From the IMG/VR virus record IMGVR_UViG_2541047802_000008: a DNA stretch of 40,539 nucleotides; one strand, given 5' to 3'. Both the position numbers and the translations under genes were made by a program. This document shows positions 2,747 through 37,146 of this stretch, piece after piece (positions within the stretch are counted from its first letter, which is position 1; each line of letters opens with the position of its first letter). Source of the stretch: a virus (taxonomy: Duplodnaviria; Heunggongvirae; Uroviricota; Caudoviricetes). Below the pieces are notes generated by a model. That model saw only the letters and a program-made list of their open reading frames with translations, had not been told where the DNA came from and made no database searches.

Positions 2747-2795
2747 GAATACCTCTCTTGGTTGCAGTGCGGCGCACGTGGCGCCGCGGTGGTGG

Positions 2796-3818: not shown

Positions 3819-3827
3819 TTTTTCTCC

Positions 3828-4727
3828 TTACTTCATTCTGAAGACGCGTTGTGTCGTTGTTGTTTTGAATTTTTCGAATAACTCAGGGTGTACTGACTGG
3901 AATAGCTTCTGGTCGAATCTGTTGCTGATCTGAGATTTCCATGTGCAGAGCGGCTTTCCGTCCAGGGTCAGGACTGAGTGCTCTTGCATGTACATCTTCA
4001 GCTTCTCTTCTGATATAGCTATTTCTTCTTCCAGTGATTTTCTGCGTGATTTCATGTCTCGTAGATCGTTGAATAGTGCGAGTGCCTTTCCGTCAGCCTC
4101 GATACTTGTCCCGGCATCTTTCTCAAACATCAGCGATACATCGCTTACGCTGGTAGCTTCCGGCGGGTTAAGATTTTTCACTCGGTCCCAGAAAGCGATT
4201 TCTTTTTCTAAGATCGCCTGGATAGTTTCTTCATCACGCTCAACCCGATAGATTCGGAAGTCGTCGCCACCGATAAGCACACCGAAAACGCATACCTGTT
4301 TGTTTGTAACCATCAACCCGTGCATGGCCTGGGCCGTGTAATGCACAGGAATTGCATCTGTCTGGATTTCTCCCCATTCTTTGGCTTTGAACGGACTAAC
4401 TGTTTTGATCTCAATGTTCTCGCCTGACGCTGCTTCTGCATCGATCTCAGCTGCAATAAAATCGTAATCACGGTGGATATAGCGGTTTCCGCGATGAACG
4501 ATTTCCATCCCTGTTTCCTCAGAAAGCAGGTCTATTACGTATGGCTCCATACGCTGGCCACGCGTGAAAACTTTCTGCTTGCTTGGGTCTACTGGTTTGA
4601 CACGTGGCTGGACCTTATCCAGATAAACCTCAAGCGGGGTGCGCCATGGGCTAATTCCAAGAATCCCTGCAACATCGCTTCCTCCGATGTATTTTGTTCT
4701 ATCCATGATTCCAGCGTTCCGCATCAT
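3828..4727 (-). CDS. YqaJ-like viral recombinase exonuclease (PD-(D/E)XK), partner of RecT
   Basis: 299-aa ORF immediately upstream of recT in the same operon; N-terminal GGSDVAGILGISPWRTPLEVYL motif typical of YqaJ/lambda-exonuclease-like proteins. Confidence 0.82.
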   Translation of the reverse strand: MMRNAGIMDRTKYIGGSDVAGILGISPWRTPLEVYLDKVQPRVKPVDPSKQKVFTRGQRMEPYVIDLLSEETGMEIVHRGNRYIHRDYDFIAAEIDAEAASGENIEIKTVSPFKAKEWGEIQTDAIPVHYTAQAMHGLMVTNKQVCVFGVLIGGDDFRIYRVERDEETIQAILEKEIAFWDRVKNLNPPEATSVSDVSLMFEKDAGTSIEADGKALALFNDLRDMKSRRKSLEEEIAISEEKLKMYMQEHSVLTLDGKPLCTWKSQISNRFDQKLFQSVHPELFEKFKTTTTQRVFRMK

Positions 4728-5330: not shown

Positions 5331-5915
5331 TTATTGTTTGCTTTTTTCGTTCTGGTTGATGACAAATTCAATGTAACTTTCGATCTTTGCTTTCTCGGTT
5401 TCGGGTAACAATGCGTAGCGTGAGCGGTCATAGTTGATAGTCGCAGGGTCGTGCGGGTGAATCAGTAGTTCATATCCGTGACGCCCGAATGCGGATGCAA
5501 CATTCTCCAGGGTGGAAATGGAAACGCTGACCTCATTGTTTAACAGGCGGCTGATTGTCACCTGGGCGACGCCGGATGCGCGGTGAAGTTTTCCCTGTGT
5601 TGAAAGGTCGCGGCTTTCGCTCATCCAGCGTTCCAGGTTGTGAGCCGCCAGCTGACCAATGTCGCTTGGGCCGACAGGCTGAAAACCTTCCTGAGAAAGC
5701 GAGCGATCGATATCAAGCCAGTTACGGGGTTTATTGGCGGCAGCTTCAATTTTTCGCGCAACCTGGTCGCCGATAACCTTCTTGCCAAGAGCCCAGCGGT
5801 TTACCAGATTTGCCTGAGTTCCAAGTTTTTCTGCCATCCGCGTCTGAACACCATTGAATTCACGGTCGATCAAGTCGTTGAGATTTTGCCTGCGGACGTC
5901 CTGGATACTTTTCAT
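5331..5915 (-). CDS. Prophage repressor candidate: tandem HTH (two XRE/lambda-repressor-like DNA-binding domains), no peptidase S24 autocleavage domain
   Basis: 194 aa; N-terminal RRQNLNDLIDREFNGVQTRMAEKLGTQANLVNRW and a second HTH-like segment SGVAQVTISRLLNNEVSVSISTLENVASAFG; no LexA-like Ser/Lys cleavage module. Divergent from a Cro-like gene, flanked on both sides by operator-like dyads. No SD in the last 12 nt before the ATG (the nearest GAGG is about 15 nt upstream, too far). Confidence 0.7.
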   Translation of the reverse strand: MKSIQDVRRQNLNDLIDREFNGVQTRMAEKLGTQANLVNRWALGKKVIGDQVARKIEAAANKPRNWLDIDRSLSQEGFQPVGPSDIGQLAAHNLERWMSESRDLSTQGKLHRASGVAQVTISRLLNNEVSVSISTLENVASAFGRHGYELLIHPHDPATINYDRSRYALLPETEKAKIESYIEFVINQNEKSKQ

Positions 5916-5970
5916 TTTCTGGAAAATCGCCTCATATATGAATCAGTAGATGATTCAATTTAAAGCAATA

Positions 5971-6033
5971 TTACCCATCAGGTAAATGCACCTCATAGGT
6001 AACTATCCTTGATTTTTGTTACCTTATGGGTGA
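5971..6033. promoter_or_regulatory. Immunity-region operator cluster (OR-like): three TTACC-N5-GGTAA-type dyads overlapping divergent promoters
   Basis: Sites at 5971..5985 (perfect), 5988..6002 (GCACC-TCATA-GGTAA) and 6019..6033 (TTACC-TTATG-GGTGA). A candidate rightward promoter TTGTTA-N17-TATTAT overlaps the third site. Confidence 0.6.
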
Positions 6034-6069
6034 ATATTTATTATCTGAAATAAATATCAGGCAATAGCT

Positions 6070-6355: not shown

Positions 6356-6370
6356 GTACCTCAAAGGTAA
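6356..6370. promoter_or_regulatory. Operator-like dyad GTACC-TCAAA-GGTAA (one mismatch)
   Basis: Lies just after the tR1-like terminator and upstream of the 6451 gene. Confidence 0.45.
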
Positions 6371-6450: not shown

Positions 6451-6651
6451 ATGGAAATCATTACACGTATTGATGCCGCAAAGCGCGGACTTAAACGCTA
6501 CTACACCGGAAAACCATGTAAGCATGGACATGACAGTGAACGCTGGGTTTACAACGGACACTGTGTTGAGTGCACCATGGAATCAAACCGTCGCATCAGG
6601 GCAGAGATTAAGCAGATCATGATTAATTCCTCCCCACAACACTCAAGCTGA
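6451..6651 (+). CDS. Small Cys/His-rich hypothetical protein (66 aa) in the cII position
   Basis: ATG at 6451; translation MEIITRIDAAKRGLKRYYTGKPCKHGHDSERWVYNGHCVECT has a C-x-H...C-x2-C pattern. The longer ORF-track start at 6388 would run through the terminator and operator, so the later start is preferred. Confidence 0.4.
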   Translation: MEIITRIDAAKRGLKRYYTGKPCKHGHDSERWVYNGHCVECTMESNRRIRAEIKQIMINSSPQHSS

Positions 6652-7500: not shown

Positions 7501-8257
7501 TGAGTACGATCGCTTTCGTGGTGGGCATGACCACTCGACGGCGGTTGCTTCTGCTGACGATGAAAGGGCAAAGAAGGAGCAGGTTGCAAGAATTTTCAAC
7601 GAAATGTTTGTCCAGTTACAGGCTGCATTTCCAGGCAGCATCGCTGCTATCAGCGAGCAAGGAAAGCTAAACGAATTTCGAAAACAATGGATGCTTGCGT
7701 TTCTGGAGAATGGGATCACAACAATGGAACAGGTTAACGCTGGTATGCGCCACGCCCGCGCCAGTGAATCTCCGTTCTGGCCGTCGCCTGGGCAATTCAT
7801 CAAGTGGTGCAAAGACAGCAAGATGGTTCTTGGCGTCACCATTGACGATGTGATGGCGGAGTTTCACCGGTACAGCAAGGAAAAAAGTTTATATCCTGGT
7901 GGTCCCGAAAGATTCCCGTGGCGACATCCGGTTATGTACTGGGTCGTATGTGATACCCGCCGTGCAATGTATCAGCGCCAGCTTAGCGAGATTGAGGTTG
8001 AGAAACACGCGCGCAGGCTGCTCGATGATTGGGCGAAAAAGGTGGCTTCCGGACAGCAGATACCCGATCCGGTGATCAGCATACAGGCAAAGCCAGAACC
8101 CATGAGTACACCTCCGGACACAGGGAGAGACGTTTACCATCCACCAGGGCGAAGTTTCGGGTGCATGCCTAACGCCGCCACCCTTGGGGGAATAACACCG
8201 GCGCAGTGGCTGATGGAGGAATACAGGCGGGGAAAGTCGGCAGGATTTATCAAGTAA
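7475..8257 (+). CDS. Replication protein P homologue (lambda P-like DnaB helicase loader)
   Basis: Translation WMLAFLENGITTMEQVNAGMRHARASESPFWPSPGQFIKWC is nearly identical in pattern to lambda P (WVLAFRENGITTMEQVNAGMRVARRQNRPFLPSPGQFVAWC). GAGGTG SD before ATG 7475; overlaps the end of the O-like gene. Confidence 0.88.
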   Translation: MKSTPELLNEYDRFRGGHDHSTAVASADDERAKKEQVARIFNEMFVQLQAAFPGSIAAISEQGKLNEFRKQWMLAFLENGITTMEQVNAGMRHARASESPFWPSPGQFIKWCKDSKMVLGVTIDDVMAEFHRYSKEKSLYPGGPERFPWRHPVMYWVVCDTRRAMYQRQLSEIEVEKHARRLLDDWAKKVASGQQIPDPVISIQAKPEPMSTPPDTGRDVYHPPGRSFGCMPNAATLGGITPAQWLMEEYRRGKSAGFIK

Positions 8258-13438: not shown

Positions 13439-13515
13439 TGGCGTGGCATGCAGGATTCGAACCTGCGACCAACCGCTTAGAAGGCGGTTGCTCTGTCCAA
13501 CTGAGCTAATGCCAC
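13439..13515 (-). tRNA. tRNA-Arg (anticodon UCU, reads AGA), phage-encoded, CCA encoded
   Basis: Reverse complement folds as a cloverleaf: acceptor GTGGCAT/ATGCCAC, D-arm GCTC...GAGC, anticodon stem ACCGC/GCGGT with loop CTTCTAA, T-arm GCAGG-TTCGAAT-CCTGC, discriminator G, CCA. Related to but distinct from host argU as recalled. Confidence 0.9.
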
Positions 13516-19649: not shown

Positions 19650-22126
19650 TGGCTATCAGTTGGATTCAGCCCAGCTTTGCTGGTGGTGAGATTGGACCGT
19701 CGTTGTACGGACGTATCGACATGGCGAAGTACCAGGTGGCATTGCGCAAGTGCGATAACTTTATCGTGCGGCAGTATGGCGGCGTTGAGAATCGACCTGG
19801 TACGCGTTTTGTCGGTGCCGCCAAATATCCAAATCGGAAATGCCGCCTGATCCCGTTCCAGTTCTCGACGGTTCAGACCTATGCTCTGGAGTTCGGACAC
19901 CAGTACATGCGCGTTATCAAAGATGGTGCGTTGGTGCTGAACAGCAGCAATGTTATTTATGAAATTTCCACGCCATATACTGAAGCCGATCTGTTCCGAA
20001 TTAAATTCACGCAAAGCGCAGACGTGCTTACGCTGGTTCATCCGGCATACCCGCCGAAAGAGTTGCGCCGCTATGCGCATGACAACTGGCAACTGGTTGA
20101 TGTGGTAACGAAGAACGGGCCATTTGAAGATATCAATATTGACGAGTCAGTGACGGTTTATGCCAGCGCCAGCACCGGGACAATTACGTTAACGGCAAGC
20201 GCCTCTATTTTTGGCGCGGAGCAGGTAGGCAAATTGTTCTATCTGGAACAGCCTGCAGTGGATTCAGTGCCGGTATGGGAAACCAGTAAGAGTACGTCGA
20301 TTGGCGATATTCGCCGTGCAGACAGTAACTACTATCGAGCCGTTACAGCAGGCAAAACAGGTACTTTGCGCCCTTCGCATACAGAAGGCACATCATGGGA
20401 TGGCTGGGGCGGATCCGGTGATGATGATACTGGCATTGAGTGGGAATATCTGCACAGTGGTTTTGGCATTGCCCGTATCACTGCTGCAAATGGAACTACT
20501 GCAACTGCCGAGGTGATTTCCTATATCCCTTCGCAGGTAGTTGGCGAGGATAATGCCAGCTATAAATGGGCTAAATATGCCTGGAACAGTGTTAATGGTT
20601 ATCCTGGCACTGTTGTTTATTATCAACAACGTCTTTACTTCGCCGCATCGACTGCGTTCCCTCAGACTATCTGGGCCAGCCGTACCGGGGATTATAAGGA
20701 TTTTGGCAAAAGCAATCCTACGCAGGATGACGACAGAATTATCTACACCTATGCCGGGCGTCAGGTTAATGAGATCCGCCACCTGATTGATGTCGGTTCG
20801 CTGGTGGCGCTGACTTCCGGAGGTGAGTACGTCATCACTGGCGACCAGAACAAAGTGCTTACCCCATCATCATTTGCATTCAGCTCTCAGGGATCAAATG
20901 GCTCGAGCAATGTCCCACCAATTGCCGTGGCGAATATTGCTCTGTTCGTCCAGGAGAAAGGCAGTGTTGTCCGTGATCTGGCCTACTCATTCGATGTTGA
21001 CGGCTATCAGGGGAACGACCTGACCATCCTTGCCAATCATCTTTTTCAGAAGCACAGCATTGTTGACTGGTGCTTCTCAATAGTCCCTTACTCCAGCGCC
21101 TTCTGCATCCGTGATGACGGTAAATTACTGGTGATGACCTATTTGCGTGATCAACAGGTTTTTGCATGGGCACCACAGTCCAGTACCGGAAAATATGAAA
21201 GCACATGCAGTATCAGCGAAGGCAATGAAGATGCGGTGTATTTCGTCATTAACCGAACCGTTAACGGGCAAACAGTGAGATACATCGAGCGACTGTCCAG
21301 CCGTTTATTTACCAGCGATGAAGATGCTTTCTTTGTTGATTCTGGCCTTAGCTATGATGGAAGAAATACGTCTGACAGAACGATGACCATCACTGGTGGT
21401 TCTGGCGAATGGGATTACCGCGCGGAATATACAATCAGTGTTTCTGGTGGTGCGTACTTCACCAGTAGTGATGTCGGCGCGCAACTACAGTTCCCTTTCC
21501 CTTATACCGGAACTGATCCTGATACTGGCGATGAGGTGTCAAAAGAATTACGTTGCGACATTATTTCTGTAACCAGCAATACCGCTGTAGTGGTTCGTGC
21601 TAACAGGAACGTCCCGCCATCCCTCAGGAATGTGGCCACCACGAACTGGCAGATGGCGCGCCGGACATTTGGAGGCCTGTCTCATCTTGAAGGCCAGACC
21701 GTAAACATTCTCTCTGATGCGAACGTGGAACCACAGAAAGTGGTTTCCGGAGGTGCCGTCACGCTGGAATCACCGGGGGCTGTAGTGCACATCGGCCTGC
21801 CAATAACTGCTGAATTCGAAACACTGGATATCAACATTAACGGACAGGAAACGCTGCTGGACAAAAAACAGGTGATCCCGTCCGTTACTCTGGTTGTGAA
21901 TGCCAGTCGCGGCATCTGGGCGACTACGCCCGGCGGTAAATGGTACGAATATCCACAGCGTGAATTCGAGTTCTACGATGATCCTGTTGATGATGCTACC
22001 GGAAAAGTAGAAGTGAAACTGGACAGTAACTGGGGCAAAAACGGACGTGTAAAAATCCGTCAGCTTGATCCGTTGCCGCTGTCTGTTCTTGCCGTTATTC
22101 CTCGCCTTACTGTTGGTGGGTTCTGA
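19649..22126 (+). CDS. Large tail protein (tail tubular protein B / nozzle-like)
   Basis: 825 aa; follows the gp11-like gene as in T7-like gene order; family assignment uncertain. Confidence 0.55.
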   Translation: MAISWIQPSFAGGEIGPSLYGRIDMAKYQVALRKCDNFIVRQYGGVENRPGTRFVGAAKYPNRKCRLIPFQFSTVQTYALEFGHQYMRVIKDGALVLNSSNVIYEISTPYTEADLFRIKFTQSADVLTLVHPAYPPKELRRYAHDNWQLVDVVTKNGPFEDINIDESVTVYASASTGTITLTASASIFGAEQVGKLFYLEQPAVDSVPVWETSKSTSIGDIRRADSNYYRAVTAGKTGTLRPSHTEGTSWDGWGGSGDDDTGIEWEYLHSGFGIARITAANGTTATAEVISYIPSQVVGEDNASYKWAKYAWNSVNGYPGTVVYYQQRLYFAASTAFPQTIWASRTGDYKDFGKSNPTQDDDRIIYTYAGRQVNEIRHLIDVGSLVALTSGGEYVITGDQNKVLTPSSFAFSSQGSNGSSNVPPIAVANIALFVQEKGSVVRDLAYSFDVDGYQGNDLTILANHLFQKHSIVDWCFSIVPYSSAFCIRDDGKLLVMTYLRDQQVFAWAPQSSTGKYESTCSISEGNEDAVYFVINRTVNGQTVRYIERLSSRLFTSDEDAFFVDSGLSYDGRNTSDRTMTITGGSGEWDYRAEYTISVSGGAYFTSSDVGAQLQFPFPYTGTDPDTGDEVSKELRCDIISVTSNTAVVVRANRNVPPSLRNVATTNWQMARRTFGGLSHLEGQTVNILSDANVEPQKVVSGGAVTLESPGAVVHIGLPITAEFETLDININGQETLLDKKQVIPSVTLVVNASRGIWATTPGGKWYEYPQREFEFYDDPVDDATGKVEVKLDSNWGKNGRVKIRQLDPLPLSVLAVIPRLTVGGF

Positions 22127-27482: not shown

Positions 27483-29957
27483 ATGAGACAGGAATGTATA
27501 CAAGCGGTTCAGCAGGCGGCGCAGCGCATGTTAACGGCGCGAGAAATACAGAACATTGAAGACCGCATTTATCGAAATATGCGCTCCATTGCTCGTGATG
27601 ACCCTATGTCGTGGCGACAACTTTCCGAATCAGAGCGGCTATATCGAGCAGCACAATTGGCATCTGAAGAATTACAGCGAGAAGCGGCATTAAAGAAACG
27701 TCGTGTGGCTCTAACTATAGCCGCGCGTCAGAGATTGGATAAATTTATCAATAGCTATCAAGGGGCTGATGGGAAACTTGGCGCTCTTAACCGTACTATA
27801 GCTTTTAATGCAGACGGTAAATCTAATTTCCTCTCTGTTGAATCCAGAACAAAAGCCACCCGTGATTATGCATTGAGTCAATTGCAGGAGGCATTCGAAG
27901 CAGTTGATCCTCGCTTTTTTGGTCTGTTTGAAGATGAAGCGGGCGTACGTGACCTGGTATATGAAATGCGGGGGCAAAATACTGGCAATGCTAAAGCAAG
28001 AAACGGTGCTAAGGCGTGGAGAGAAGTTACAGAGCTGCTGCGCCGCCGGTTTAATGATGCTGGTGGGGACATTGGCTATCTCGAAAACTGGGGGATCCCT
28101 CAACATCATTCTATGGAAAAGGTTGGGGCAGTATCAAAGGATAAGTGGGTTAGCGATGTTATAGGTAAGCTGGATCGCAAATATTATATCCGAGCCGATG
28201 GACAACTGATGAACGATGCCGAGTTGTCTTCATTTCTTGGAGAGGCTTATAACACGATCGCTACTGGTGGGCTGAATAAGCTTACTGATACCGGAATGCG
28301 AATTTCCGGCGCACGTGCTAACCGTGGTAATGCATCACGACAGATACATTTCAAAGATGCAGATTCCTATCTGCAATATCAGCAACTTTATGGCGATCGC
28401 TCTCTATGGGAAATCATGGTCGGTCACCTGGAAGGTATCAGTAAAGATATTGCACTGGTGGAAACATATGGCCCAAACCCCGATCATGTTTTCCGCTCTC
28501 TTCTTGATCAGGTGAAGGCAGAAACGGCAACAGCTAACCCGAGTAAAACCGGTAAAGTCGAGCGGCTGGCGAACAACACAGAGAATCTGTACAACTTTAT
28601 TTCCGGAAAGACACAGCCTGTAGCGAATCCGCACATCGCGCGATGGTCTGACAATATCCGCAACTGGCTGGTTGCCAGCAGACTCGGATCCGCGTTGCTG
28701 TCATCGTTCTCTGATCTTGGAACCATGTATCTGTCTGCGAAGGTTACCAACCTTCCAATAAACCAGTTATTCCGCAACCAGCTTGAAGCTATGGACCCAA
28801 CGAACCGTACAGAACTTGCGCGGGCTCGCCGCGCTGGTCTGGCGATGGAATCTCTACTTGGCAGCGTTAACCGCTGGGCGATGGATAATATGGGGCCGTC
28901 AGTGTCTCGTTGGGCGGCAACGGCGGTAATGCGTGCCAGTGGGCTTACAGCATGGTCAGATGCGCACAAGCGCGCCTATGGCGTAACCATGATGGGAAGC
29001 CTGGGAGAAGTAGTGTCACGGACACCAGACCTTCGTAGCCTCGATGACTCTGATTTTCGTATCCTGAAAAGCAAAGGGATTACTGACACAGACTGGAGCG
29101 TATGGAAGCTGGCGAAACAGGAGGACTGGGGGAACGGTAATAATACGATGCTGACACCGGAAAGCATTATGCGTATCCCTGATTCAGCAGTTAAACATCT
29201 TGGTGAGCCTGAACGCGTGAAATTTGAGGCAATGCGTAAACTGCTCGGTGCCGTAACTGAAGAAGTTGATATGGCTGTTATTACACCGGGAGCACGTGAG
29301 CAACTGATAACCGGTTCTGGTATTCAGCGTGGAACATGGAAAGGTGAATTAACGAGAAGTGTTTTCCTGTTTAAATCGTTCCCTATCTCGGTTGTTATGC
29401 GTCACTGGTCACGCGCTATGGGTATGCCGTCTGCTGGTGGGCGTGCGGCATATATTGCGACGTTTATTGCCAGTACGACCATTCTTGGCGCTTTGTCGCA
29501 GCAACTTAACGACCTTGCGTCTGGTCGTAATCCTCGAGAGATGACAGGAGAAGATGCCGCAAAATTCTGGCTTGGTGCTCTACTGAAAGGTGGTGGTCTT
29601 GGCCTTTACGGTGACTTTTTATTGTCAGATCACACTAGGTACGGAAGCGGCGCGCTGGCGTCGATGCTTGGCCCGGTAGCTGGTCTGGTTGATGACGTAG
29701 TGAAGATTGCTCAGGGCATACCGTTAAATGCTGTGGAAGGGAAGAGTGAGCAGACTGGTGGTGATCTGGTGAAGCTGGGGAAAGGTTTGATGCCTGGTGC
29801 GAATCTCTGGTACTTGAAGGCGGCTCTCGATCACATGATCTTTAACCAGATGCAGGAGTATTTTTCACCAGGCTATTTGCGTAAAATGGAGCAACGTTCG
29901 AAGAAAGAGTTTAACCAGACATACTGGTGGCGACCACAGGATGTCACTCCGCAATAA
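27483..29957 (+). CDS. Internal virion / DNA-ejection protein (824 aa)
   Basis: Large ORF completing the podovirus core-protein trio before the accessory island. Confidence 0.55.
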   Translation: MRQECIQAVQQAAQRMLTAREIQNIEDRIYRNMRSIARDDPMSWRQLSESERLYRAAQLASEELQREAALKKRRVALTIAARQRLDKFINSYQGADGKLGALNRTIAFNADGKSNFLSVESRTKATRDYALSQLQEAFEAVDPRFFGLFEDEAGVRDLVYEMRGQNTGNAKARNGAKAWREVTELLRRRFNDAGGDIGYLENWGIPQHHSMEKVGAVSKDKWVSDVIGKLDRKYYIRADGQLMNDAELSSFLGEAYNTIATGGLNKLTDTGMRISGARANRGNASRQIHFKDADSYLQYQQLYGDRSLWEIMVGHLEGISKDIALVETYGPNPDHVFRSLLDQVKAETATANPSKTGKVERLANNTENLYNFISGKTQPVANPHIARWSDNIRNWLVASRLGSALLSSFSDLGTMYLSAKVTNLPINQLFRNQLEAMDPTNRTELARARRAGLAMESLLGSVNRWAMDNMGPSVSRWAATAVMRASGLTAWSDAHKRAYGVTMMGSLGEVVSRTPDLRSLDDSDFRILKSKGITDTDWSVWKLAKQEDWGNGNNTMLTPESIMRIPDSAVKHLGEPERVKFEAMRKLLGAVTEEVDMAVITPGAREQLITGSGIQRGTWKGELTRSVFLFKSFPISVVMRHWSRAMGMPSAGGRAAYIATFIASTTILGALSQQLNDLASGRNPREMTGEDAAKFWLGALLKGGGLGLYGDFLLSDHTRYGSGALASMLGPVAGLVDDVVKIAQGIPLNAVEGKSEQTGGDLVKLGKGLMPGANLWYLKAALDHMIFNQMQEYFSPGYLRKMEQRSKKEFNQTYWWRPQDVTPQ

Positions 29958-29965
29958 AAGGAGAT

Positions 29966-30091
29966 ATGATGGTTCAAATAACTTTTATTGTACTAATATG
30001 TGCAGCGTTTTTATGCTATTCATACATTTTGATAAAAATGGGTTTCAATTGGAATCTCTGTTGCGTGCAGCGGCATGGTTCGGCTTTGTAG
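29966..30091 (+). CDS. Small hydrophobic peptide candidate (41 aa)
   Basis: AAGGAG at 29958..29963 followed by two in-frame ATGs at 29966 and 29969; translation MMVQITFIVLICAAFLCYSYILIKMGFNWNLCCVQRHGSAL. An overlapping alternative frame (29998..30129) also encodes a hydrophobic peptide; which is real is unresolved. Confidence 0.25.
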   Translation: MMVQITFIVLICAAFLCYSYILIKMGFNWNLCCVQRHGSAL

Positions 30092-30176
30092 TATTCGGAA
30101 TTGTATTGTTCGGAAGAATAATAAAATAACTAGTTAATTTGTGGATTGGTGCTGTTTTTCCATGATAGGGGTAATT

Positions 30177-30557
30177 ATGAGAAAAGTATTTTTGATTTTT
30201 GGATTTATGCTTCTCGTTGGATGCCAGTCAGCTGCACAGTTTGAAAGAAATATGCTTACGTGGCGCGGGCAGAGTATAGACGCAATGGTTCAGCAGTGGG
30301 GGTATCCTCAGGGAGAGCTTACATCTCCAGATGGAAACAGAGTGTATGTTTACTCAAGCTCTGGTAGTTATAACGTACCACAAACCACAACGTATAATAC
30401 TACGTCTAATCTAATTGGTAATACTATATATTCAAACACATACGCAACAACTGATGGCGGTTATACACTCCATTTCAGTTGCTCTGTTTACGTTGAGTTT
30501 GGTGCTGATAAGATTATTAAAAATGTTACATGGCGCGGTAATAATTGCGTTGCGTGA
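30177..30557 (+). CDS. Lipoprotein (126 aa) with signal peptide and lipobox LVGC; accessory gene
   Basis: MRKVFLIFGFMLLVGCQS signal/lipobox; Thr/Ser/Tyr-rich mature region; AT-rich surroundings. Confidence 0.6.
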   Translation: MRKVFLIFGFMLLVGCQSAAQFERNMLTWRGQSIDAMVQQWGYPQGELTSPDGNRVYVYSSSGSYNVPQTTTYNTTSNLIGNTIYSNTYATTDGGYTLHFSCSVYVEFGADKIIKNVTWRGNNCVA

Positions 30558-30565
30558 CATGTCAC
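30554..30565. repeat. 12-bp perfect palindrome GTGACATGTCAC (copy 3 of 3)
   Basis: Overlaps the lipoprotein stop codon and directly abuts the terminator hairpin. Confidence 0.7.
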
Positions 30566-30590
30566 AGGCCGCTTTCGCGGCCTTGTTTTT
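30566..30590 (+). terminator. Rho-independent terminator after the lipoprotein gene
   Basis: AGGCCGC-TTT-CGCGGCCT hairpin followed by TGTTTTT. Confidence 0.6.
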
Positions 30591-30750
30591 AACGAATGCC
30601 ACCGCCACCCGGGCGGGAATCCGCAGAACGCCCACCGCAGCGTGAGCCGTCAGCAGCAGTGTCGCTGTCGTGCTGACAACGACCGGCAAAGGCCTGAGTT
30701 GAAGCTACCAGAGACAACAAAACGAACAGTGCAGCAAATGCTTTTTTCAT
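30589..30750 (-). CDS. Small secreted protein candidate (53 aa) with signal peptide
   Basis: MKKAFAALFVLLSLVASTQAFA signal peptide followed by a short Cys-containing Gly/Arg-rich region; weak RBS. Confidence 0.3.
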   Translation of the reverse strand: MKKAFAALFVLLSLVASTQAFAGRCQHDSDTAADGSRCGGRSADSRPGGGGIR

Positions 30751-30821
30751 TGTGAAATTTCCATCTATAAGCCACCTCAATGTGGCGTCAATGAGTGTAG
30801 CACTGACTTTTGTTTCGTCCA

Positions 30822-30844
30822 CAAAAAAGCCCGCAGCGCGGGCT
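30822..30844 (-). terminator. Rho-independent terminator ending the minus-strand accessory operon
   Basis: Plus-strand AAAAAA-GCCCGCAGCGCGGGC; on the minus strand the hairpin is followed by U6, immediately 3' of the 30844 stop. Confidence 0.55.
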
Positions 30845-31392
30845 TACTTTTCTTCAGGTTTGTTGTCTTCAGATTTCTTCTTGATGCTTGGTTTTTGTCT
30901 AAGAACGAAAATACCAGCCACTGCAACAACTGTACCGATCACTGTGCCAGCTAGAACTTCATGGCCTGTTAAACCTAATAATGTTGCACAAGCTACTGTA
31001 AAAATAGTTGCACTCAGGCCAAACCACTGCCCACGTTTATCTCTATTAATAGCCCCGTCAAGTGCCTTTTCCTCCATTTTCTGGCGGTGAGCAAACTCCT
31101 TCTCCGTCAGCTGGAAGATGCGTTCGGGGGCATCAGGTAAAATATCCTGATACCCGCGAAGCAGATAGGGGGGAGGAAGCGGACCCTGAAACGCATGGTG
31201 AGCGACAACTATCTCCTGAATTTCAGGGCGATCAAGAACTCTTGTGAAGGCATCTGGGTGTTGAATGATCTCGTTACTTAGCCCTTCCTCAACTTCCTCG
31301 AACTCAGTTTCTTCGTTATCACTTGGTTGCCCAATAGATTTTTGCATATTTGTCGAAGGACATTCCTTTAGCTTCTGGTTTTCCTCTTGCAT
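30844..31392 (-). CDS. Membrane protein (182 aa) with acidic N-terminal region and two C-terminal TM helices (DUF2335-like)
   Basis: C-terminal hydrophobic segments WFGLSATIFTVACATLLGL and LAGTVIGTVVAVAGIFVL followed by a Lys-rich tail; RGQ motif before the first TM. Start at 31392 overlaps the upstream gene by 74 nt; a later start at 31347 is possible. Confidence 0.5.
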   Translation of the reverse strand: MQEENQKLKECPSTNMQKSIGQPSDNEETEFEEVEEGLSNEIIQHPDAFTRVLDRPEIQEIVVAHHAFQGPLPPPYLLRGYQDILPDAPERIFQLTEKEFAHRQKMEEKALDGAINRDKRGQWFGLSATIFTVACATLLGLTGHEVLAGTVIGTVVAVAGIFVLRQKPSIKKKSEDNKPEEK

Positions 31393-31645
31393 TTGAGTTT
31401 TTCCCTGTCACTATTGCCCATTTTCCGCCAGCAGGCGCTGCAATTTTTTTTCCGTTCTTTACTATATATTCAGCATAAACACGATTTTCTGACCGTCTGA
31501 GATCGTCTCCGACCATATTCATGTCTCTTGATATAACTTTGACGACAGAGTCTCGGTTTAAAGCCTTGGCATAGTTGGAGCCAGGAACGATACCCAAAGG
31601 GGTGCCAGACTCTATAGCCAGCTCCTTGACATATCTTCTGCTCAT
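31319..31645 (-). CDS. Hypothetical protein (108 aa)
   Basis: ATG at 31645 with GAGG 6 nt upstream, 22 nt downstream of an operator-like dyad; basic protein, function unknown. Confidence 0.45.
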   Translation of the reverse strand: MSRRYVKELAIESGTPLGIVPGSNYAKALNRDSVVKVISRDMNMVGDDLRRSENRVYAEYIVKNGKKIAAPAGGKWAIVTGKNSNARGKPEAKGMSFDKYAKIYWATK

Positions 31646-31666
31646 ATGAACCTCAACCAATCGACT

Positions 31667-31681
31667 TTACCAATCGGGTAA
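31667..31681. promoter_or_regulatory. Operator-like dyad TTACC-AATCG-GGTAA
   Basis: Perfect dyad between the Ant-like gene and the 31645 gene. Confidence 0.5.
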
Positions 31682-31766
31682 TTTTAAACATGAGTATAAT
31701 GCTTTTAACTGCAACGAGTGTAAACAATTATTGATAATTGTAGGCACATCCATGTGCCGCCGCTCG

Positions 31767-32423
31767 TCAGAAGAACCCTGCTTTGTCGTTGATATACTCC
31801 GCGTGGGTCTGGATATCACGCAGGCATTTGCTCACACCGACGATGTAGCAGAACATGGTGGTCAGCTCCGCCGCCGCGCCCGATACGTCGTGCCCGTCGT
31901 CCTGTAACTGGTTCAGCAGATTCATCAGCAGTGAGTGCTCCGTCAGGCCGAGAACACCAGACGGCGAGTGAATCAAACTGCGGTAGCCGGGCTTCAGCGG
32001 GGCGCTGTATTCTTTTTTGTCTTCCAGCTTGATCGCCTCCATAATGGCGGGCATGAAGCCTGACAAGACCTTCTCCACTTTTGTTTCTTGTTGTCTTAAA
32101 CGTTTCTCGCATTCAATGAAGTAGCGTCGCACCTGGCGACCTTTTTCGTTACGCTCGACCATCGCCAGCTCTTTGGCTGTATCAAGGGTGAGGTGGTACT
32201 CTTTGCGGTTGTGGCCGCCTCTACCAGATGTTTGCTTTCCCAAATTGGAAAGCAAAATATAGTCTTGATTTTCAATGAATTCGTATTCTGATATGCGATT
32301 TGTAATCCATGCTGCAAACACCTTTTTAACACCTAAAAAAGCGTGCAGATCGCGGGCATTACAAAGTAGGGCTGTTTCGTTAGATATAGTGCCGTTGAAT
32401 ACGGGGATGAGTTGAGCGTTCAT
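31767..32423 (-). CDS. Ant-like antirepressor candidate (218 aa): N-terminal AntA-like domain plus C-terminal domain shared with the 33574..33831 protein
   Basis: N-terminal [33 protein letters not shown] resembles the AntA/AntB antirepressor N-domain pattern (from memory). The C-terminal ~70 aa align with the 85-aa protein at about 45% identity (IH(S/T)P.GV..L.E.S.LM.LL..L..DG..V.G..AELT...Y......DLQTH). Confidence 0.6.
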
Positions 32424-32580
32424 GATGGCGTCTCCACTTAGCGAATTACATCACCACCGCTGAGACCAATCAGATGGTGGTGAACTGAACGGAGTTGGTC
32501 TTACCGGCCTAAGTGGTACCGGCGTCCTTTCGGACCCCCATTCAGCCCACCATAATTCTGGCATGACTGTGCTATACGCA

Positions 32581-32665
32581 TAAAAAAACCACGTCTGGCG
32601 TGGTATGCGCCACTTAGTAATCCGGGAGACCAATCCCGGCACTGGATTTTGCCAGTGCCCGATTA
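32581..32665 (-). ncRNA. Candidate small RNA or attenuating leader upstream of the Ant-like gene
   Basis: Minus-strand unit: candidate promoter near 32660-32700 (TTTACA-N18-TAGTAA on the minus strand, overlapped by an operator dyad), two adjacent hairpins (32640..32657 and 32622..32639) and an intrinsic terminator (CCACG-CCAGA-CGTGG plus U7, plus-strand 32582..32603). No convincing ORF. Confidence 0.3.
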
Positions 32666-32694
32666 CTATGGCACAAGAGGAGTGCAATGTAAAT

Positions 32695-32709
32695 TTACCG
32701 CAAAGGTAA
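32695..32709. promoter_or_regulatory. Operator-like dyad TTACC-GCAAA-GGTAA
   Basis: Perfect dyad overlapping the candidate promoter of the leader/Ant transcription unit. Confidence 0.5.
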
Positions 32710-32787
32710 TGATAAACGCGAAGAAATATTAAAATCAACCGTATTTGGTTGATTGCGTTTAACGCTTGATCACCTGAAAGCAAGATA

Positions 32788-32802
32788 TTACCTTTAAGGT
32801 AA
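32788..32802. promoter_or_regulatory. Operator-like dyad TTACC-TTTAA-GGTAA
   Basis: Perfect dyad 21 nt upstream of ATG 32823. Confidence 0.5.
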
Positions 32803-32822
32803 TGTTATTGTGAGGAAAAGCA

Positions 32823-33551
32823 ATGGAAGTTTTCTGGATAGTTGTTGGTGTGGTTGCGGTGATTATTTACGTTATCAACCAGAACAAGACTAAGATCTCT
32901 GATCGTACGGTCGTTAATCATAACAAAACGATAAAGACCGAAGATGGGGAGATAACGATTAATCGTACACAGGTGATAGAACACACCTCTACTCAGTTTC
33001 AAAAAACTGGAGGTAATGCGCCTAATATTTCCGCACCTCCTGCTTATGATAGTGCGGTAATCCAGACATATTATAAACAGCAGGAGTTAGCAAAAGAGAG
33101 GCAACTGATTCAGCCAAAGCCGTTTACAGCTGAGCTTCCACCTGGAGTGTCAACGCGTCCGGCATATCATGGAAGATTCCCTGGTGATGACATATCGTCT
33201 CAGTCATCTAAAAAAGCACCTCAGGCAGTATCAGAGCCAGCAAGAATACCTTCTGTATCGCCGCCAAAAGAAGAATCAGCTAACAGAGTTTCAAGTGGTA
33301 GCAAGCAGTGCTTGCGATGCAGAATAAACCTACCATATGAAAAATTCAGGAAATCGTCAAAAAATCCAGATGGATTGACTAAGTGGTGTGCAAGGTGTCT
33401 CGATGGCCCAAAGAATACACGCCATATGAAGTGGTGCCCAATTTGTAATGTCCGCAGAAAACGAACAAGCTTTTACCCTAATAATCAAAATGCGGATGGC
33501 TTAATGGCATGGTGCAAAACGTGCTGGGACGAGCACAAAGCGAAACGATAG
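32823..33551 (+). CDS. Membrane-anchored protein (242 aa): N-terminal TM helix, low-complexity linker, two tandem Cys4 zinc-ribbon repeats
   Basis: TM helix FWIVVGVVAVIIYVI; C-terminal repeats C-LRC-x22-WC-ARC and C-PIC-x24-WC-KTC, each with DGL before WC; GAGG SD. Confidence 0.6.
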   Translation: MEVFWIVVGVVAVIIYVINQNKTKISDRTVVNHNKTIKTEDGEITINRTQVIEHTSTQFQKTGGNAPNISAPPAYDSAVIQTYYKQQELAKERQLIQPKPFTAELPPGVSTRPAYHGRFPGDDISSQSSKKAPQAVSEPARIPSVSPPKEESANRVSSGSKQCLRCRINLPYEKFRKSSKNPDGLTKWCARCLDGPKNTRHMKWCPICNVRRKRTSFYPNNQNADGLMAWCKTCWDEHKAKR

Positions 33552-33575
33552 GCCGCTCTTGCGGCCTTTAAATTT
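33551..33575 (+). terminator. Rho-independent terminator after the zinc-ribbon protein gene
   Basis: GGCCGC-TCTT-GCGGCC hairpin followed by TTTAAATTT. Confidence 0.5.
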
Positions 33576-33831
33576 ACCGGGTTTGTTTTCGTAATTGTTC
33601 GGCACAATAGTCGAGATGTGTTTGCAGATCCTGCATAGACATCTGTGAGCTGGTGACGTAGTTAATCAGTGCAGTCAGTTCGGCAAGTGGGCCATCGACA
33701 TTAAATCCATCCTTATCGAGATCCCGGAGTAATTTCATCAAGTGCGATCCCTCCACCAGTGACCTGACGCCTCCCGGCGTGTGAATCCTTTCGGTAAATC
33801 CGTCTTCCAGTGGATAGTGATACTGCTGCAT
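33574..33831 (-). CDS. LexA-controlled small protein (85 aa), paralogue of the Ant-like C-terminal domain; candidate SOS-inducible antirepressor or modulator
   Basis: ATG at 33831 with GGAGAAG SD; a near-consensus LexA box lies 22 nt upstream. The ORF-track start at 33954 would run through the LexA box and operator and is rejected. Confidence 0.6.
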   Translation of the reverse strand: MQQYHYPLEDGFTERIHTPGGVRSLVEGSHLMKLLRDLDKDGFNVDGPLAELTALINYVTSSQMSMQDLQTHLDYCAEQLRKQTR

Positions 33832-33852
33832 CTTATCTTCTCCATGCAATAA

Positions 33853-33868
33853 CTGTATATTTATACAG
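33853..33868. promoter_or_regulatory. LexA (SOS) box CTGTATATTTATACAG
   Basis: With flanks AACTGTATATTTATACAGTA it matches the enterobacterial LexA consensus TACTGTATATATATACAGTA at 18 of 20 positions; a TATAAA -10-like element lies inside the box on the coding (minus) strand. Confidence 0.75.
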
Positions 33869-33907
33869 TAGCAAATAATTTGTTTGCTATCCAGCACGTT
33901 TTGCAAA

Positions 33908-33922
33908 TTACCCGAAAGGTAA
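33908..33922. promoter_or_regulatory. Operator-like dyad TTACC-CGAAA-GGTAA
   Basis: Perfect dyad upstream of the LexA-box promoter, between it and the tailspike gene. Confidence 0.5.
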
Positions 33923-34026
33923 TATCTATTGGTATTTATAGTCTTTTTATCCATATATGGTTTTTCAGGTAATAGAATAACCAGATATGCGGCGCAACGG
34001 GTGCTGCGACTATCTGGAGATTTAAC

Positions 34027-37000
34027 ATGACGGTCTCAACCGAAGTTGACCACAACGAATACACCGGTAACGGCGTTACGACATCGTTTCCGTATACTTT
34101 TCGAATTTTCAGAAAATCAGACCTGGTTGTTCAGGTGTCTGACCTGAACGGAAACGTAACAGAATTGGTTCTGGATACCGGTTATACGGTAACTGGGGCG
34201 GGCACTTATAGTGGCGGTTCTGTGGTTCTTCCGTCTCCGCTTGCTACTGGATGGCGAATTACGATAGATCGTGTGCTTGATGTAGTGCAGGAGACAGACC
34301 TTCGCAATCAGGGAAAATTTTTCCCCGAAGTGCATGAAGATGCCTTTGACTACCTGACGATGCTGATCCAGCAATGTTTTGGGTGGTTCAGACGTGCATT
34401 GATGAAACCATCTTTGCTTGCAAAATATTACGATGCAAAGCAAAACAAAATTTCTAACCTTGCAGATCCATCATTTGAGCAGGACGCTGTAAATAATCGC
34501 TCAATGCGTAATTATGTCGATGCTGCAATCGCCGGGGTTGTTGGTGGTTTTGGTTGGTTTATTCAGTATGGTTCTGGGGCAGTATACCGAACGTTCCAGG
34601 ATAAGATGCGTGATGCTATTAGCCCCAAAGATTTTGGAGCTGTTGGTGATGGTATAAATGACGATTCCACTGCAATAAGCGCGTGCCTTGAAGCCTCATC
34701 TCCAGGTTATAAAATTGACGGATTAGGGCTTACTTTTAAAGTATCAACTCTTCCGGATGTCAGCCGATTTAAAAATGCTCGTTTTTTATTTGAGAGAATA
34801 CCGGGTCAGCCTCTTTTTTATGCTTCTGAAGATTTTATCCAGGGAGAGTTATTTAAAATTACAGATACACCGTGGTACAACGCCTGGACGCAGGATAAAA
34901 CGTTTGTATATGACAATGTCATCTATGCGCCTTTTATGGCTGGAGACCGCCATGGTGTAAATAACCTCCATGTTGCATGGGTTCGCTCAGGAGATGACGG
35001 GAAGACCTGGACAACGCCGGAATGGCTTACAGATTTACATGAAAACTATCCCACAGTTAACTATCACTGCATGAGTATGGGGGTTGTCAGAAATCGCCTT
35101 TTTGCTGTAATTGAGACGCGGACCGTGAGCGGAAATAAACTGCAGGTTGCAGAGTTGTGGGATCGCCCAATGAGTCGCAGCCTTCGCGTTTATGGTGGTA
35201 TAACGAAAGCAGCAAATCAGCAAGTCGCTTATATTCGCATTACTGATCACGGATTATTTGCTGGTGATTTTGTCAACTTCTCAAACTCTGGTGTTACAGG
35301 TGTTACCGGGAATATGACGGTGACTACTGTTATTGATAAAAATACTTTTACAGTTACGACGCAAAATACCCAGGATGTGGATCAGAATAACGAGGGTAGA
35401 TACTGGAGTTTTGGTACATCATTTCACTCGTCACCATGGAGAAAAACCAGTCTTGGAACTATTCCTTCTTTTGTTGACGGAAGCACTCCTGTTACTGAGA
35501 TTCACAGTTTTGCGACGATTAGCGATAACAGTTTTGCTGTTGGCTACCATAATGGTGATATTGGTCCACGCGAGCTTGGGATACTCTATTTCTCTGATGC
35601 TTTCGGTTCTCCTGGTAGCTTTGTTCGCAGACGCATACCTGCAGAATATGAGGCGAATGCATCTGAGCCATGTGTAAAATATTATGATGGCATTCTGTAT
35701 CTGACGACCAGGGGGACATTAAGTACTCAACCCGGTAGTTCATTGCACAGAAGCTCTGATTTAGGTACATCATGGAATTCTCTTCGCTTCCCAAATAATG
35801 TTCATCACTCAAACCTTCCTTTTGCCAAAGTTGGCGATGAGCTGATTATTTTTGGCAGTGAGCGCGCATTTGGTGAGTGGGAAGGAGGAGAACCTGATAA
35901 CCGTTATGCAGGAAACTATCCAAGAACATTTATGACCAGAGTTAACGTCAATGAGTGGAGTCTGGATAATGTAGAGTGGGTTAATGTTACTGATCAGATT
36001 TATCAGGGCGGAATAGTTAACTCTGCGGTTGGTGTTGGTTCAGTTTGTATCAAAGACAACTGGCTGTACTACATTTTCGGTGGGGAAGACTTTCTAAACC
36101 CATGGAGCATAGGGGATAACAACAGAAAATATCCTTATGTTCACGATGGTCACCCGGCTGATTTGTATTGTTTCAGGGTGAAAATTAAACAGGAAGAATT
36201 TGTTTCAAGGGATTTTGCCTACGGAGCCACTCCTAACAGAACGCTTCCTACTTTTATGTCGACGTCAGGCGTGAGGACGGTTCCTGTACCTGTTGATTTC
36301 ACAGATGATGTTGCCGTCCAGTCACTGACTGTCCATGCAGGTACATCAGGACAAGTTCGCGCGGAAGTCAAACTTGAGGGTAATTACGCCATTATTGCGA
36401 AGAAAGTACCGTCTGATGATGTTACCGCTCAGAGATTAATCGTTAGCGGCGGTGAAACAACGTCTTCAGCAGATGGTGCAATGATAACGTTGCATGGTTC
36501 CGGAAGCAGTACTCCACGTCGCGCGGTATATAACGCACTCGAACATCTTTTTGAGAACGGAGATGTTAAACCTTATCTTGATAATGTAAATGCTCTTGGT
36601 GGTCCGGGAAACAGGTTCTCGACAGTTTATCTTGGCTCCAATCCTGTGGTTACCAGTGACGGAACATTAAAGACAGAGCCGGTCTCTCCTGACGAAGCAT
36701 TGCTGGATGCCTGGGGTGACGTCAGGTATATCGCTTATAAATGGCTGAACGCTGTCGCTATAAAGGGGGAAGAAGGGGCGAGGATACATCATGGTGTAAT
36801 CGCGCAGCAACTTCGTGATGTTCTTATTTCTCACGGACTCATGGAAGAAGAAAGCACAACATGCCGCTATGCCTTTCTTTGCTATGACGATTATCCCGCA
36901 GTATATGATGACGTCATTACTGGCCAAAGGGAAATGCCGCTGACTGATAATGACGGGAGCATCATTGTTGATGAGGATGATAATCCAGTGATGGTAATGG

Positions 37001-37146
37001 AAGACATCATTGAGCGCGTTGAAATAACGCCAGCAGGATCTAGATGGGGGGTCAGACCTGATCTCTTATTCTATATCGAGGCAGCATGGCAGCGCAGAGA
37101 AATGGATAAGATAAAAGAGCGGATTCAGTCTCTGGAAGAACGTTAA
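34027..37146 (+). CDS. Tailspike protein: conserved N-terminal particle-binding domain, beta-helix (pectate-lyase-like) domain, C-terminal intramolecular chaperone (S74-like) domain
   Basis: 1039 aa; N-terminal EYTGNGVTTSFPYTF motif; KDFGAVGDGINDDSTAI is the typical beta-helix tailspike motif; C-terminal GARIHHGVIAQQLRDVL matches the autoproteolytic chaperone domain of endosialidase-type spikes. Confidence 0.85.
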   Translation: MTVSTEVDHNEYTGNGVTTSFPYTFRIFRKSDLVVQVSDLNGNVTELVLDTGYTVTGAGTYSGGSVVLPSPLATGWRITIDRVLDVVQETDLRNQGKFFPEVHEDAFDYLTMLIQQCFGWFRRALMKPSLLAKYYDAKQNKISNLADPSFEQDAVNNRSMRNYVDAAIAGVVGGFGWFIQYGSGAVYRTFQDKMRDAISPKDFGAVGDGINDDSTAISACLEASSPGYKIDGLGLTFKVSTLPDVSRFKNARFLFERIPGQPLFYASEDFIQGELFKITDTPWYNAWTQDKTFVYDNVIYAPFMAGDRHGVNNLHVAWVRSGDDGKTWTTPEWLTDLHENYPTVNYHCMSMGVVRNRLFAVIETRTVSGNKLQVAELWDRPMSRSLRVYGGITKAANQQVAYIRITDHGLFAGDFVNFSNSGVTGVTGNMTVTTVIDKNTFTVTTQNTQDVDQNNEGRYWSFGTSFHSSPWRKTSLGTIPSFVDGSTPVTEIHSFATISDNSFAVGYHNGDIGPRELGILYFSDAFGSPGSFVRRRIPAEYEANASEPCVKYYDGILYLTTRGTLSTQPGSSLHRSSDLGTSWNSLRFPNNVHHSNLPFAKVGDELIIFGSERAFGEWEGGEPDNRYAGNYPRTFMTRVNVNEWSLDNVEWVNVTDQIYQGGIVNSAVGVGSVCIKDNWLYYIFGGEDFLNPWSIGDNNRKYPYVHDGHPADLYCFRVKIKQEEFVSRDFAYGATPNRTLPTFMSTSGVRTVPVPVDFTDDVAVQSLTVHAGTSGQVRAEVKLEGNYAIIAKKVPSDDVTAQRLIVSGGETTSSADGAMITLHGSGSSTPRRAVYNALEHLFENGDVKPYLDNVNALGGPGNRFSTVYLGSNPVVTSDGTLKTEPVSPDEALLDAWGDVRYIAYKWLNAVAIKGEEGARIHHGVIAQQLRDVLISHGLMEEESTTCRYAFLCYDDYPAVYDDVITGQREMPLTDNDGSIIVDEDDNPVMVMEDIIERVEITPAGSRWGVRPDLLFYIEAAWQRREMDKIKERIQSLEER

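Follow-up and report, generated by a model that had tools for sequence, protein, structure and literature searches.

A predicted prophage induction switch with exchangeable cargo between the virion and tailspike genes of an epsilon15-like prophage

Here, we analyzed a 4-kb segment (29958–33960) of the virus record IMGVR_UViG_2541047802_000008, a stretch of 40,539 nucleotides (hereafter the window) that represents an epsilon15/phiV10-type (Uetakevirus) temperate podophage prophage with an endosialidase tailspike. The segment is flanked by the last internal-virion gene and the gene of the tailspike and most probably (about 0.8) constitutes the epsilon15-group counterpart of P22 immI, namely an induction switch combined with exchangeable cargo. 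A first-pass annotation had described it as a single lysogenic-conversion, exclusion or defence island. Its right three quarters instead comprise control elements of prophage induction: an antirepressor under putative LexA control, a second antirepressor (Ant) under putative c4 control, and four operators of the prophage repressor Rep. Overlooked within the coordinates of that annotation were the 85-residue gene (33831–33574, minus strand), the C4 antisense RNA, an isrK-like leader, the four operators and the LexA box.

The segment is organized into two parts. The left part (29958–30845) holds the tail of the late operon, including small hydrophobic open reading frames (ORFs) and a lipoprotein of BamE/BLIP-like fold, together with a gene for a 53-residue secreted peptide precursor, and carries no repressor sites. 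The right part (30844–33960) contains four transcription units, with the palindrome TTACC-N5-GGTAA overlapping or abutting the promoter of each. With one mismatch allowed, this 15-bp palindrome occurs 14 times in the window against 0.61 expected, a number reached by 0 of 100 shuffled sequences. Four of the 14 sites fall within the segment (31667, 32695, 32788 and 33908), none of them left of 31667, and each is positioned 21–77 nt upstream of a start codon or an RNA 5′ end. Five others (5197, 5259, 5971, 6019 and 6356) flank the rep gene on both sides. The sites outside the segment, which further include 8295, 8357, 10669, 10687 and 13838, are distributed over the immunity region and also precede a DUF1064/resolvase-like gene, the gene for the small terminase and the portal region. 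The site at 6356 and a terminator precede a gene for a 66-residue protein (6451–6651, plus strand; phrog_1081), a homologue of epsilon15 gp40 with a C-x-H...C-x2-C motif that is possibly zinc-binding and early.

This operator set is conserved. phiV10 carries 14 operators in the same places, and a Pectobacterium prophage whose repressor is of this type has 13 in 16.6 kb in the same layout. In the GenBank record of epsilon15, identical ATTACC-N5-GGTAAT palindromes are annotated “repressor; lysogeny”, one of them upstream of gp19. Such a distribution suggests that many operons are directly repressor-controlled, reminiscent of P1 with its scattered C1 operators. Rep itself (194 residues; 5331–5915, minus strand, outside the segment) contains two helix-turn-helix domains (residues ~21–61 and 104–147) and matches PDB 5D50 chain A (E = 3.5e-42), which is Rep of the Salmonella phage SPC32H. 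A Peptidase_S24 domain, which would mediate RecA-dependent autocleavage, was looked for in Rep and not found.

The SPC32H-type small antirepressor (85 residues; 33574–33831, minus strand; phrog_450) is the homologue of epsilon15 gp19 and phiV10 p24, and its residues 2–84 align with the SPC32H Ant chain of the same structure (5D50_E, E = 4e-47). A perfect LexA box of the form CTGT-N8-ACAG (CTGTATATTTATACAG, 33853–33868) precedes its ATG by 22 nt and is retained in seven relatives, namely the near-identical L001, TL-2011b, phiV10, the Pectobacterium prophage, epsilon15, ZX5 and the Salmonella prophage L022. Further upstream, the Rep operator at 33908–33922 corresponds to the “repressor; lysogeny” site preceding epsilon15 gp19. 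The LexA box, this operator and the sequence between them are conserved as a block in phiV10, epsilon15, ZX5, TL-2011b and the Salmonella and Pectobacterium prophages. By these features the small ant gene is predicted to be under LexA control, as was reportedly described for SPC32H ant by Kim and Ryu in 2013. The match to the 5D50 complex further suggests that small Ant binds Rep and releases it from DNA. In SPC32H, the Ant tetramer breaks up the DNA-binding Rep tetramer (PMC9638917). The overall logic of this unit is that of the antirepressors Tum, AntC and those of Gifsy (PMC3121763).

The large antirepressor (31767–32423, minus strand; phrog_377) combines an AntA N-terminal domain (Pfam AntA, 92 bits) with a C-terminal domain resembling small Ant; its C-terminal ~75 residues share 42% identity with small Ant over 74 residues (E = 1e-15). 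Comparison with the homologues in L001, L002 (TL-2011b), L012 and L021 disclosed that the N-terminal domain is swapped among relatives, being AntA here and in L012 and Bro-N or ORF6N elsewhere, with the C-terminal domain retained. Both antirepressors thus presumably act on the same Rep via the shared domain.

Two structured RNAs occupy the 400-bp gap between Ant and the gene for a 242-residue zinc-ribbon protein. One is a full-length C4 antisense RNA (32473–32557, minus strand; RF01695, 61.2 bits against a gathering threshold of 45), and the other an isrK-like leader (32582–32658, minus strand; RF01394, 67.7 bits against 50; c4-a1b1 motif, 39.9 bits) with an intrinsic terminator (32604–32588, minus strand). 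Each c4 target word is present twice, once in the isrK leader (a1, 32633–32627; b1, 32617–32610; minus strand) and once just upstream of the Ant start (a2, UUGGUCU, 32469–32463; b2, CUAAGUGG, 32441–32434; minus strand), where b2 overlaps the Ant Shine–Dalgarno sequence. Of the c4 loop words, CCACUUAG is complementary to CUAAGUGG and AGACCAA to UUGGUCU. Pairing of the c4 loops with a1/b1 and a2/b2 is the arrangement of P1/P7 immI (PMC8201110). An Rfam scan located the isrK–c4 pair ahead of the Bro-N/Ant gene in 9 of the 9 relatives with such a gene. Transcription is served by two promoters: a Rep operator (32695–32709) covers positions −7 to +8 of the upstream one (32738–32709) and lies just upstream of the −35 element of the downstream isrK/c4 promoter (32693–32665). 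In phage ZX5, overexpression of the repressor (ORF21) shut off lytic genes, and that of the Bro-N antirepressor (ORF4), the homologue of large Ant, lowered lysogeny (PMC9782041).

Public records label the c4/isrK region in other ways. In the phiV10 entry NC_007804, the label at 20336–20415 is “similar to hypothetical protein SF0880”, together with a terminator, and the ZX5 record annotates a coding sequence for an “ash family protein” at 1779–1892; in both, Rfam puts isrK and c4 at this place. TL-2011b carries, in the same inter-virion region (2780–3964 and 5883–6068), a P22-type arc/ant/sar set in addition to isrK/c4/Bro-N; with small Ant counted, this amounts to three antirepressor systems in one phage.

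Read together, these elements make the apparent mystery island legible as a circuit. In the lysogen, Rep would silence the large-Ant, orf108–DUF2335 and zinc-ribbon units, and LexA and Rep would jointly silence small ant. DNA damage would remove LexA; small Ant would then disassemble Rep, and all four units would be switched on. The c4 RNA is expected to block translation of large Ant unless it is outrun by transcription.

The position of the segment is also that of P22 immI, which carries sieA. On its left lies an 824-residue virion structural protein gene (27483–29957), homologous to phiV10 p20 and epsilon15 gp17, and on its right the endosialidase tailspike gene (34027–37146). As the first-pass annotation had proposed, the segment interrupts the virion module: only gp18 and gp19 are found between gp17 and the tailspike in epsilon15, and a few more genes in phiV10. 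Because epsilon15 and phiV10 carry fewer genes there, the segment represents an enlargement of a naturally variable spot. A presence/absence matrix of the relatives further bore out the view of these genes as accessory and mosaic, with no need for them in virion assembly; small ant is universal and the remaining genes come and go, most being missing from epsilon15 and phiV10. The GC content of the segment is 0.43–0.48, compared with ~0.50–0.52 for the virion module. Matches to the segment together with its flanks come from E. coli prophages and the phages TL-2011b, phiV10, vB_EcoP_ZX5 and EC.W1-9; the best match, E. coli SY033, has an identical gene order, and ~890 of 5426 complete E. coli genomes match part of the segment. 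The ORFs listed by the first-pass annotation (lipoprotein, 53-residue protein, two-transmembrane protein, 108-residue protein, Ant and 242-residue protein) were recovered at or near the positions it gave. Except for the small hydrophobic ORFs, the listed genes are real rather than chance ORFs, each with a PHROG family match and homologues in relatives. A terminator scan returned 13 terminator-like sites against 4.2 expected and recovered the three terminators named earlier, at 30566–30583 (plus strand), 33550–33567 (plus strand) and 30827–30845 (bidirectional, previously placed at 30822). Elsewhere in the window, a tRNA gene (13442–13515, minus strand, 73 bits) sits between the terminase and portal genes; one tRNA was reported for ZX5 as well (PMC9782041).

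Downstream of Ant, every relative has a hairpin followed by a promoter whose −10 element abuts a Rep operator, which defines a slot with variable content. Here, the operator TTACCAATCGGGTAA (31667–31681) abuts the −10 element TAAAAT (31686–31681), and this geometry is repeated in TL-2011b, L006, L011 and L012. The slot encodes orf108, a basic 108-residue protein (31319–31645, minus strand; isoelectric point 10.0; phrog_10654) of a very narrow family of 7 clusters, and a DUF2335 membrane protein with two C-terminal transmembrane helices (30844–31347, minus strand; PF10097, 57 bits; phrog_3996). The latter spans 167 residues from its likely start, ATG 31347, with the ORF extending to 31392. The two genes overlap by 29 nt, orf108 is always followed by DUF2335, and the unit ends at the bidirectional intrinsic terminator (30827–30845). 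The same pair is found in ZX5, EC.W1-9, L008 and L022. Elsewhere, the slot is filled with a 59-residue ORF and YafO (TL-2011b), HicB and HicA (Pectobacterium), DUF4760 (L011), or proteins of 69 and 272 residues (L012).

As a small, overlapping and co-transcribed gene pair, orf108–DUF2335 has the layout of a toxin–antitoxin module. No match of either protein to a toxin or antitoxin family was obtained with Pfam, NCBIfam or PADLOC models, and the likeness to the two-gene toxin modules HicAB and YafO is positional only. A designation of DUF2335 as a phospholipase in two papers on type VI secretion systems was not used, as it is probably a slip for DUF2235 (Tle1). Prophages are known to harbor accessory hotspots with toxin–antitoxin or defence cargo, such as those of P2 and P4. 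The slot resembles P2/P4-type hotspots in its fixed place downstream of Ant, its conserved promoter and its alternative cargo among relatives. It differs in that the promoter carries an operator of the prophage repressor, predicting expression upon derepression and not in the lysogen, and in that no slot cargo matches PADLOC models.

The left part follows a different regulatory logic. The 126-residue lipoprotein (30177–30557, plus strand; phrog_3716), of BamE/OsmE/BLIP-like fold, is the final gene of the late plus-strand operon, on which it would ride, and the transcript ends at an intrinsic terminator (30566–30583, plus strand). A search for a signal peptide with lipobox [LVI][ASTVI][GAS]C identified MRKVFLIFGFMLLVG|C, with LLVG|C as the lipobox and Gln at +2, and Cys16 is invariant in 19 homologues. 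The 53-residue signal-peptide protein (30750–30589, minus strand; phrog_14503) would be processed to a secreted Gly/Arg/Asp-rich peptide of ~31 residues with two cysteines. Its sigma-70-like promoter, TTGACG-16-TATAGA, can be read directly from the sequence and has no operator; the promoter would thus be unregulated, and this gene alone is probably a good candidate for being expressed in the lysogen. Two small hydrophobic ORFs that overlap each other (29941–30129, plus strand), of 41 residues from 29966 (29966–30091) and 43 residues from ATG 29999, are of uncertain status. They occupy the place of phiV10 p21, a 46-residue protein with two transmembrane helices. Neither has a family match, the PGAP annotation of the near-identical L001 includes none, and the region is 100% identical among relatives, rendering comparison uninformative.

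The remaining unit encodes the 242-residue zinc-ribbon protein, a bitopic membrane protein (32823–33551, plus strand; phrog_6762). Its promoter (32766–32802, plus strand) consists of −35 TTGATC (32766–32771), a 17-nt spacer and −10 TACCTT (32789–32794), with a Rep operator (32788–32802) lying over the −10 element, and its intrinsic terminator is located at 33550–33567 (plus strand). Pectobacterium and Serratia show the same promoter/operator geometry, as does Providencia, where the palindrome is another one. In the Providencia prophage L004, the zinc-ribbon promoter bears TTAACC-N5-GGTTAA (7957–7973), and the gene lies on the same strand just downstream of a small Ant homologue. This hints that the operator co-varies with a heteroimmune repressor.

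From the N-terminus, the protein comprises a transmembrane helix (residues 3–22), an NQN[RK]T motif, a conserved hairpin (residues ~29–52), a disordered Pro-rich linker and a tandem Stc1-like zinc ribbon (residues 160–242) built from two CxxC...DG..WCxxC ribbons. The AlphaFold2 model is confident for the transmembrane helix and the ribbons only, with a predicted local distance difference test score >90 at residues 160–242. All full-length members share this architecture, down to 28% identity, across several enterobacterial genera and Aeromonas, and the eight cysteines are invariant across the family alignment. The family is small: a word-indexed search gave 33 clusters, all from Enterobacterales, and only 26 clusters were returned when 1.84 billion representatives were scanned in full with the first 58 residues. 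The N-terminal module was found in this family only.

At the fold level, the best PDB match is the tandem zinc finger of Stc1 (2LUY; Foldseek E = 3e-3, probability 0.89), and matches in BFVD are to the zinc modules of phage and giant-virus HNH/EndoVII endonucleases (E down to 2e-7), in line with the PHROG matches and a Pfam Stc1 match below threshold. PDB sequence searches with the zinc-ribbon protein, orf108 and the lipoprotein gave chance-level or repeat-driven matches only. The zinc-ribbon architecture had earlier been considered unassignable to a known family. For the ribbons this no longer holds, as they appear to be Stc1-like and resemble those at the N-termini of phage HNH/EndoVII nucleases, whereas the architecture as a whole is indeed without a characterised family. 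Resemblance to nuclease modules could mean that the ORF is what remains of a homing HNH/EndoVII endonuclease after decay and loss of the nuclease domain. We regard this as highly improbable, given that the full helix–hairpin–linker–ribbon plan and the cysteines are conserved as described, the N-terminal module is unique to the family, and the gene possesses its own promoter, operator and terminator. No beta-beta-alpha-Me or EndoVII nuclease domain was detected, the PHROG and BFVD matches being confined to residues ~142–242, that is, the ribbons. Ribbon 2 also carries the PHROG label “Lar-like restriction alleviation”, which was rejected as a pointer to function; it covers one ribbon only, and endonuclease-labelled families share the region.

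Because Lys/Arg residues follow the transmembrane helix and Zn-Cys4 sites need a reducing compartment, the ribbons are probably cytoplasmic. The protein is accordingly predicted to reside in the inner membrane in an N-out/C-in orientation with nearly the whole chain cytoplasmic. The ribbon domain is basic (isoelectric point 9.9; 20 Lys/Arg in 85 residues). Lacking a catalytic domain, the protein would serve as a tether at the inner face of the membrane, for DNA or for a partner protein. A perfect inverted repeat of 15 nt, TGCAAAACGTGCTGG, was also observed, one arm of which (33513–33527) encodes WCKTCW of ribbon 2. The other (33891–33905) belongs to the conserved promoter of small ant and occurs also in phages without the zinc-ribbon gene. 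By our estimate, chance alone would yield ~0.01 such repeats in 4.2 kb, and the repeat may be a recombination joint.

Genomic context informs the role of this protein. In Aeromonas phage phiARM81mr, a homologue follows cI by 18 bp, and in a P22-like prophage (L019) another follows mnt by 12 bp, in place of P22 orf59a/sieA. Sites after cI or mnt are classic places for lysogen-expressed exclusion genes, and exclusion of incoming or competing phage DNA is our best, albeit tentative, guess at the function. A 2023 Nature paper on Aeromonas ARM81mr does not mention the homologue. In the epsilon15 relatives, the gene is absent from phiV10, epsilon15 and ZX5 and appears in TL-2011b as a misc_feature (“similar to hypothetical protein”) with no coding sequence, so that the basic cycle does not depend on it.

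An early lytic or lysis–lysogeny role is almost as likely as exclusion. The protein would then be an early lytic or establishment factor, whether a modulator of the lysis–lysogeny choice, a host-takeover factor or a membrane anchor for replication or packaging. We consider this rather unlikely. Its promoter is Rep-gated like the early promoters, and the gene always adjoins antirepressor or repressor genes (c4–ant, KilA-N/ANT, mnt and cI). The plan of an N-terminal anchor, a flexible linker and a globular cytoplasmic domain also resembles, by analogy, that of bitopic recruiters such as ZipA. Against such a role stand the patchy distribution of the gene just described and the finding that no partner gene is conserved beside it. 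The two expression regimes of the family, Rep-gated in one set of phages and linked to cI or mnt in the other, point to no single answer.

Placement after cI and mnt likewise bears on the original proposal that the whole segment is a prophage-expressed conversion, exclusion or defence island, with the zinc-ribbon protein as effector and orf108–DUF2335 as a toxin–antitoxin or abortive-infection pair. The low GC content and mosaicism of the segment, its location at the P22 immI site that is home to sieA, the HicB–HicA, YafO or DUF4760 cargo of the post-Ant slot in relatives, and the operator-free 53-residue and lipoprotein genes all speak for it. As an account of the cargo genes the proposal retains merit, as indicated by the immI position, the homologues after cI and mnt and the HicAB/YafO slot; as an account of the core of the region it is contradicted, since small Ant, large Ant and c4 are induction-control rather than conversion genes. 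Expression from the prophage is argued against by Rep operators that overlap the zinc-ribbon and orf108–DUF2335 promoters at the −10 element in every epsilon15-like relative examined, predicting silence in the lysogen. For a defence function, a scan of the segment proteins with PADLOC models (PADLOC-DB 2.0) matched no defence model, with one chance-level hit (E = 0.039), and the alternative cargo of relatives was likewise without a match. An NCBIfam scan of all segment proteins yielded nothing useful, and the SieA family was absent among the PHROG and Pfam matches of any of them. The close relative ZX5 carries the lipoprotein, 53-residue, DUF2335, orf108 and Ant genes and lacks the zinc-ribbon gene; its lysogens were unchanged in growth, stress, serum and virulence assays, so that lysogeny conferred no phenotype in the reported tests (PMC9782041). 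Taken together, we judge a prophage-expressed island unlikely as an explanation of the whole segment, and favor the immI-like induction switch with exchangeable cargo.

Several points weigh against the latter account. Repression of the four units by Rep is predicted solely from where the operators lie, and at the downstream isrK/c4 promoter an operator upstream of the −35 element could lead to activation or have no effect. An icd-like ORF was looked for between the end of c4 (32473) and the ant ATG (32423) and not found, the interval being 49 nt only; the coupling mechanism of P1 therefore cannot be identical here. For the zinc-ribbon protein, the Pfam Stc1 score (PF12898) of 21.0 bits is below the gathering threshold of 24.8, and Stc1 binds protein and not DNA, so that DNA binding by the ribbons remains putative. 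Finally, the homologues co-transcribed with cI or mnt would be lysogen-expressed, favoring a function in the lysogen over an early lytic one.

A broader interpretation, to which we assign a rather low probability, is that the zinc-ribbon proteins form a new class of inner-membrane-tethered, non-catalytic binders residing in the immunity slots of unrelated phages, here accompanied by a Rep-gated hotspot for toxin modules. If so, the binders of epsilon15-like, P22-like, lambdoid Aeromonas and Yersinia phages would capture a host factor, or DNA that is incoming or competing, at the membrane, and repressor-silenced toxin modules, including the new orf108–DUF2335 pair, would fire only when the prophage repressor is inactivated. 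The segment in any case presents two uncharacterised pieces, a rare membrane-anchored zinc-ribbon family and the orf108–DUF2335 pair in the HicAB/YafO slot. As accessory genes in the slot appear to be wired to the repressor, their expression would be expected at induction or infection and not in the resting lysogen.

Comparison with known systems places these elements in context. The zinc-ribbon domain resembles Stc1 (PF12898; 2LUY) and the N-terminal modules of HNH/EndoVII nucleases in its two consecutive four-cysteine ribbons with CxxC...G..WCxxC spacing; it differs in lacking a catalytic domain and in that the ribbons are C-terminal and attached to a transmembrane helix via a ~100-residue disordered linker. 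With P22 immI (sieA–orf59a–mnt–arc–sar–ant, between gene 16 and gene 9), the segment shares its position, an antirepressor, an antisense RNA and accessory membrane proteins. It differs in that no Pfam match to Arc or Mnt and no Rfam match to sar RNA was found in the window, the same Rfam models detecting sar in L019 and TL-2011b, and in that no sequence relation to SieA was found. The likeness to P1/P7 immI consists of a c4 RNA scoring above gathering, loops that pair with a1/b1 and a2/b2, and an operator of the primary repressor at the promoter. In contrast to P1/P7, icd is missing and a mere 49 nt separate c4 from ant, an isrK-type leader carries a terminator of its own, and the predicted target is an SPC32H-type Rep rather than C1.

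The closest counterpart is the SPC32H/epsilon15 Rep–Ant switch, the SPC32H version of which is reportedly the subject of studies by Kim and Ryu (2013) and Kim et al. (2016). Small Ant, a dual helix-turn-helix Rep devoid of a peptidase domain (PDB 5D50), the LexA box and the operator palindromes are all present, and by these sequence-level features the region would be a member of this SOS switch. It extends beyond the SPC32H switch by a second, c4-controlled large Ant with the same C-terminal domain and by two further Rep-gated cargo units. In this K1-capsule-specific E. coli prophage, an SOS switch of the SPC32H type thus appears to be combined with a second antirepressor under P1-type antisense control and with a 14-site regulon.

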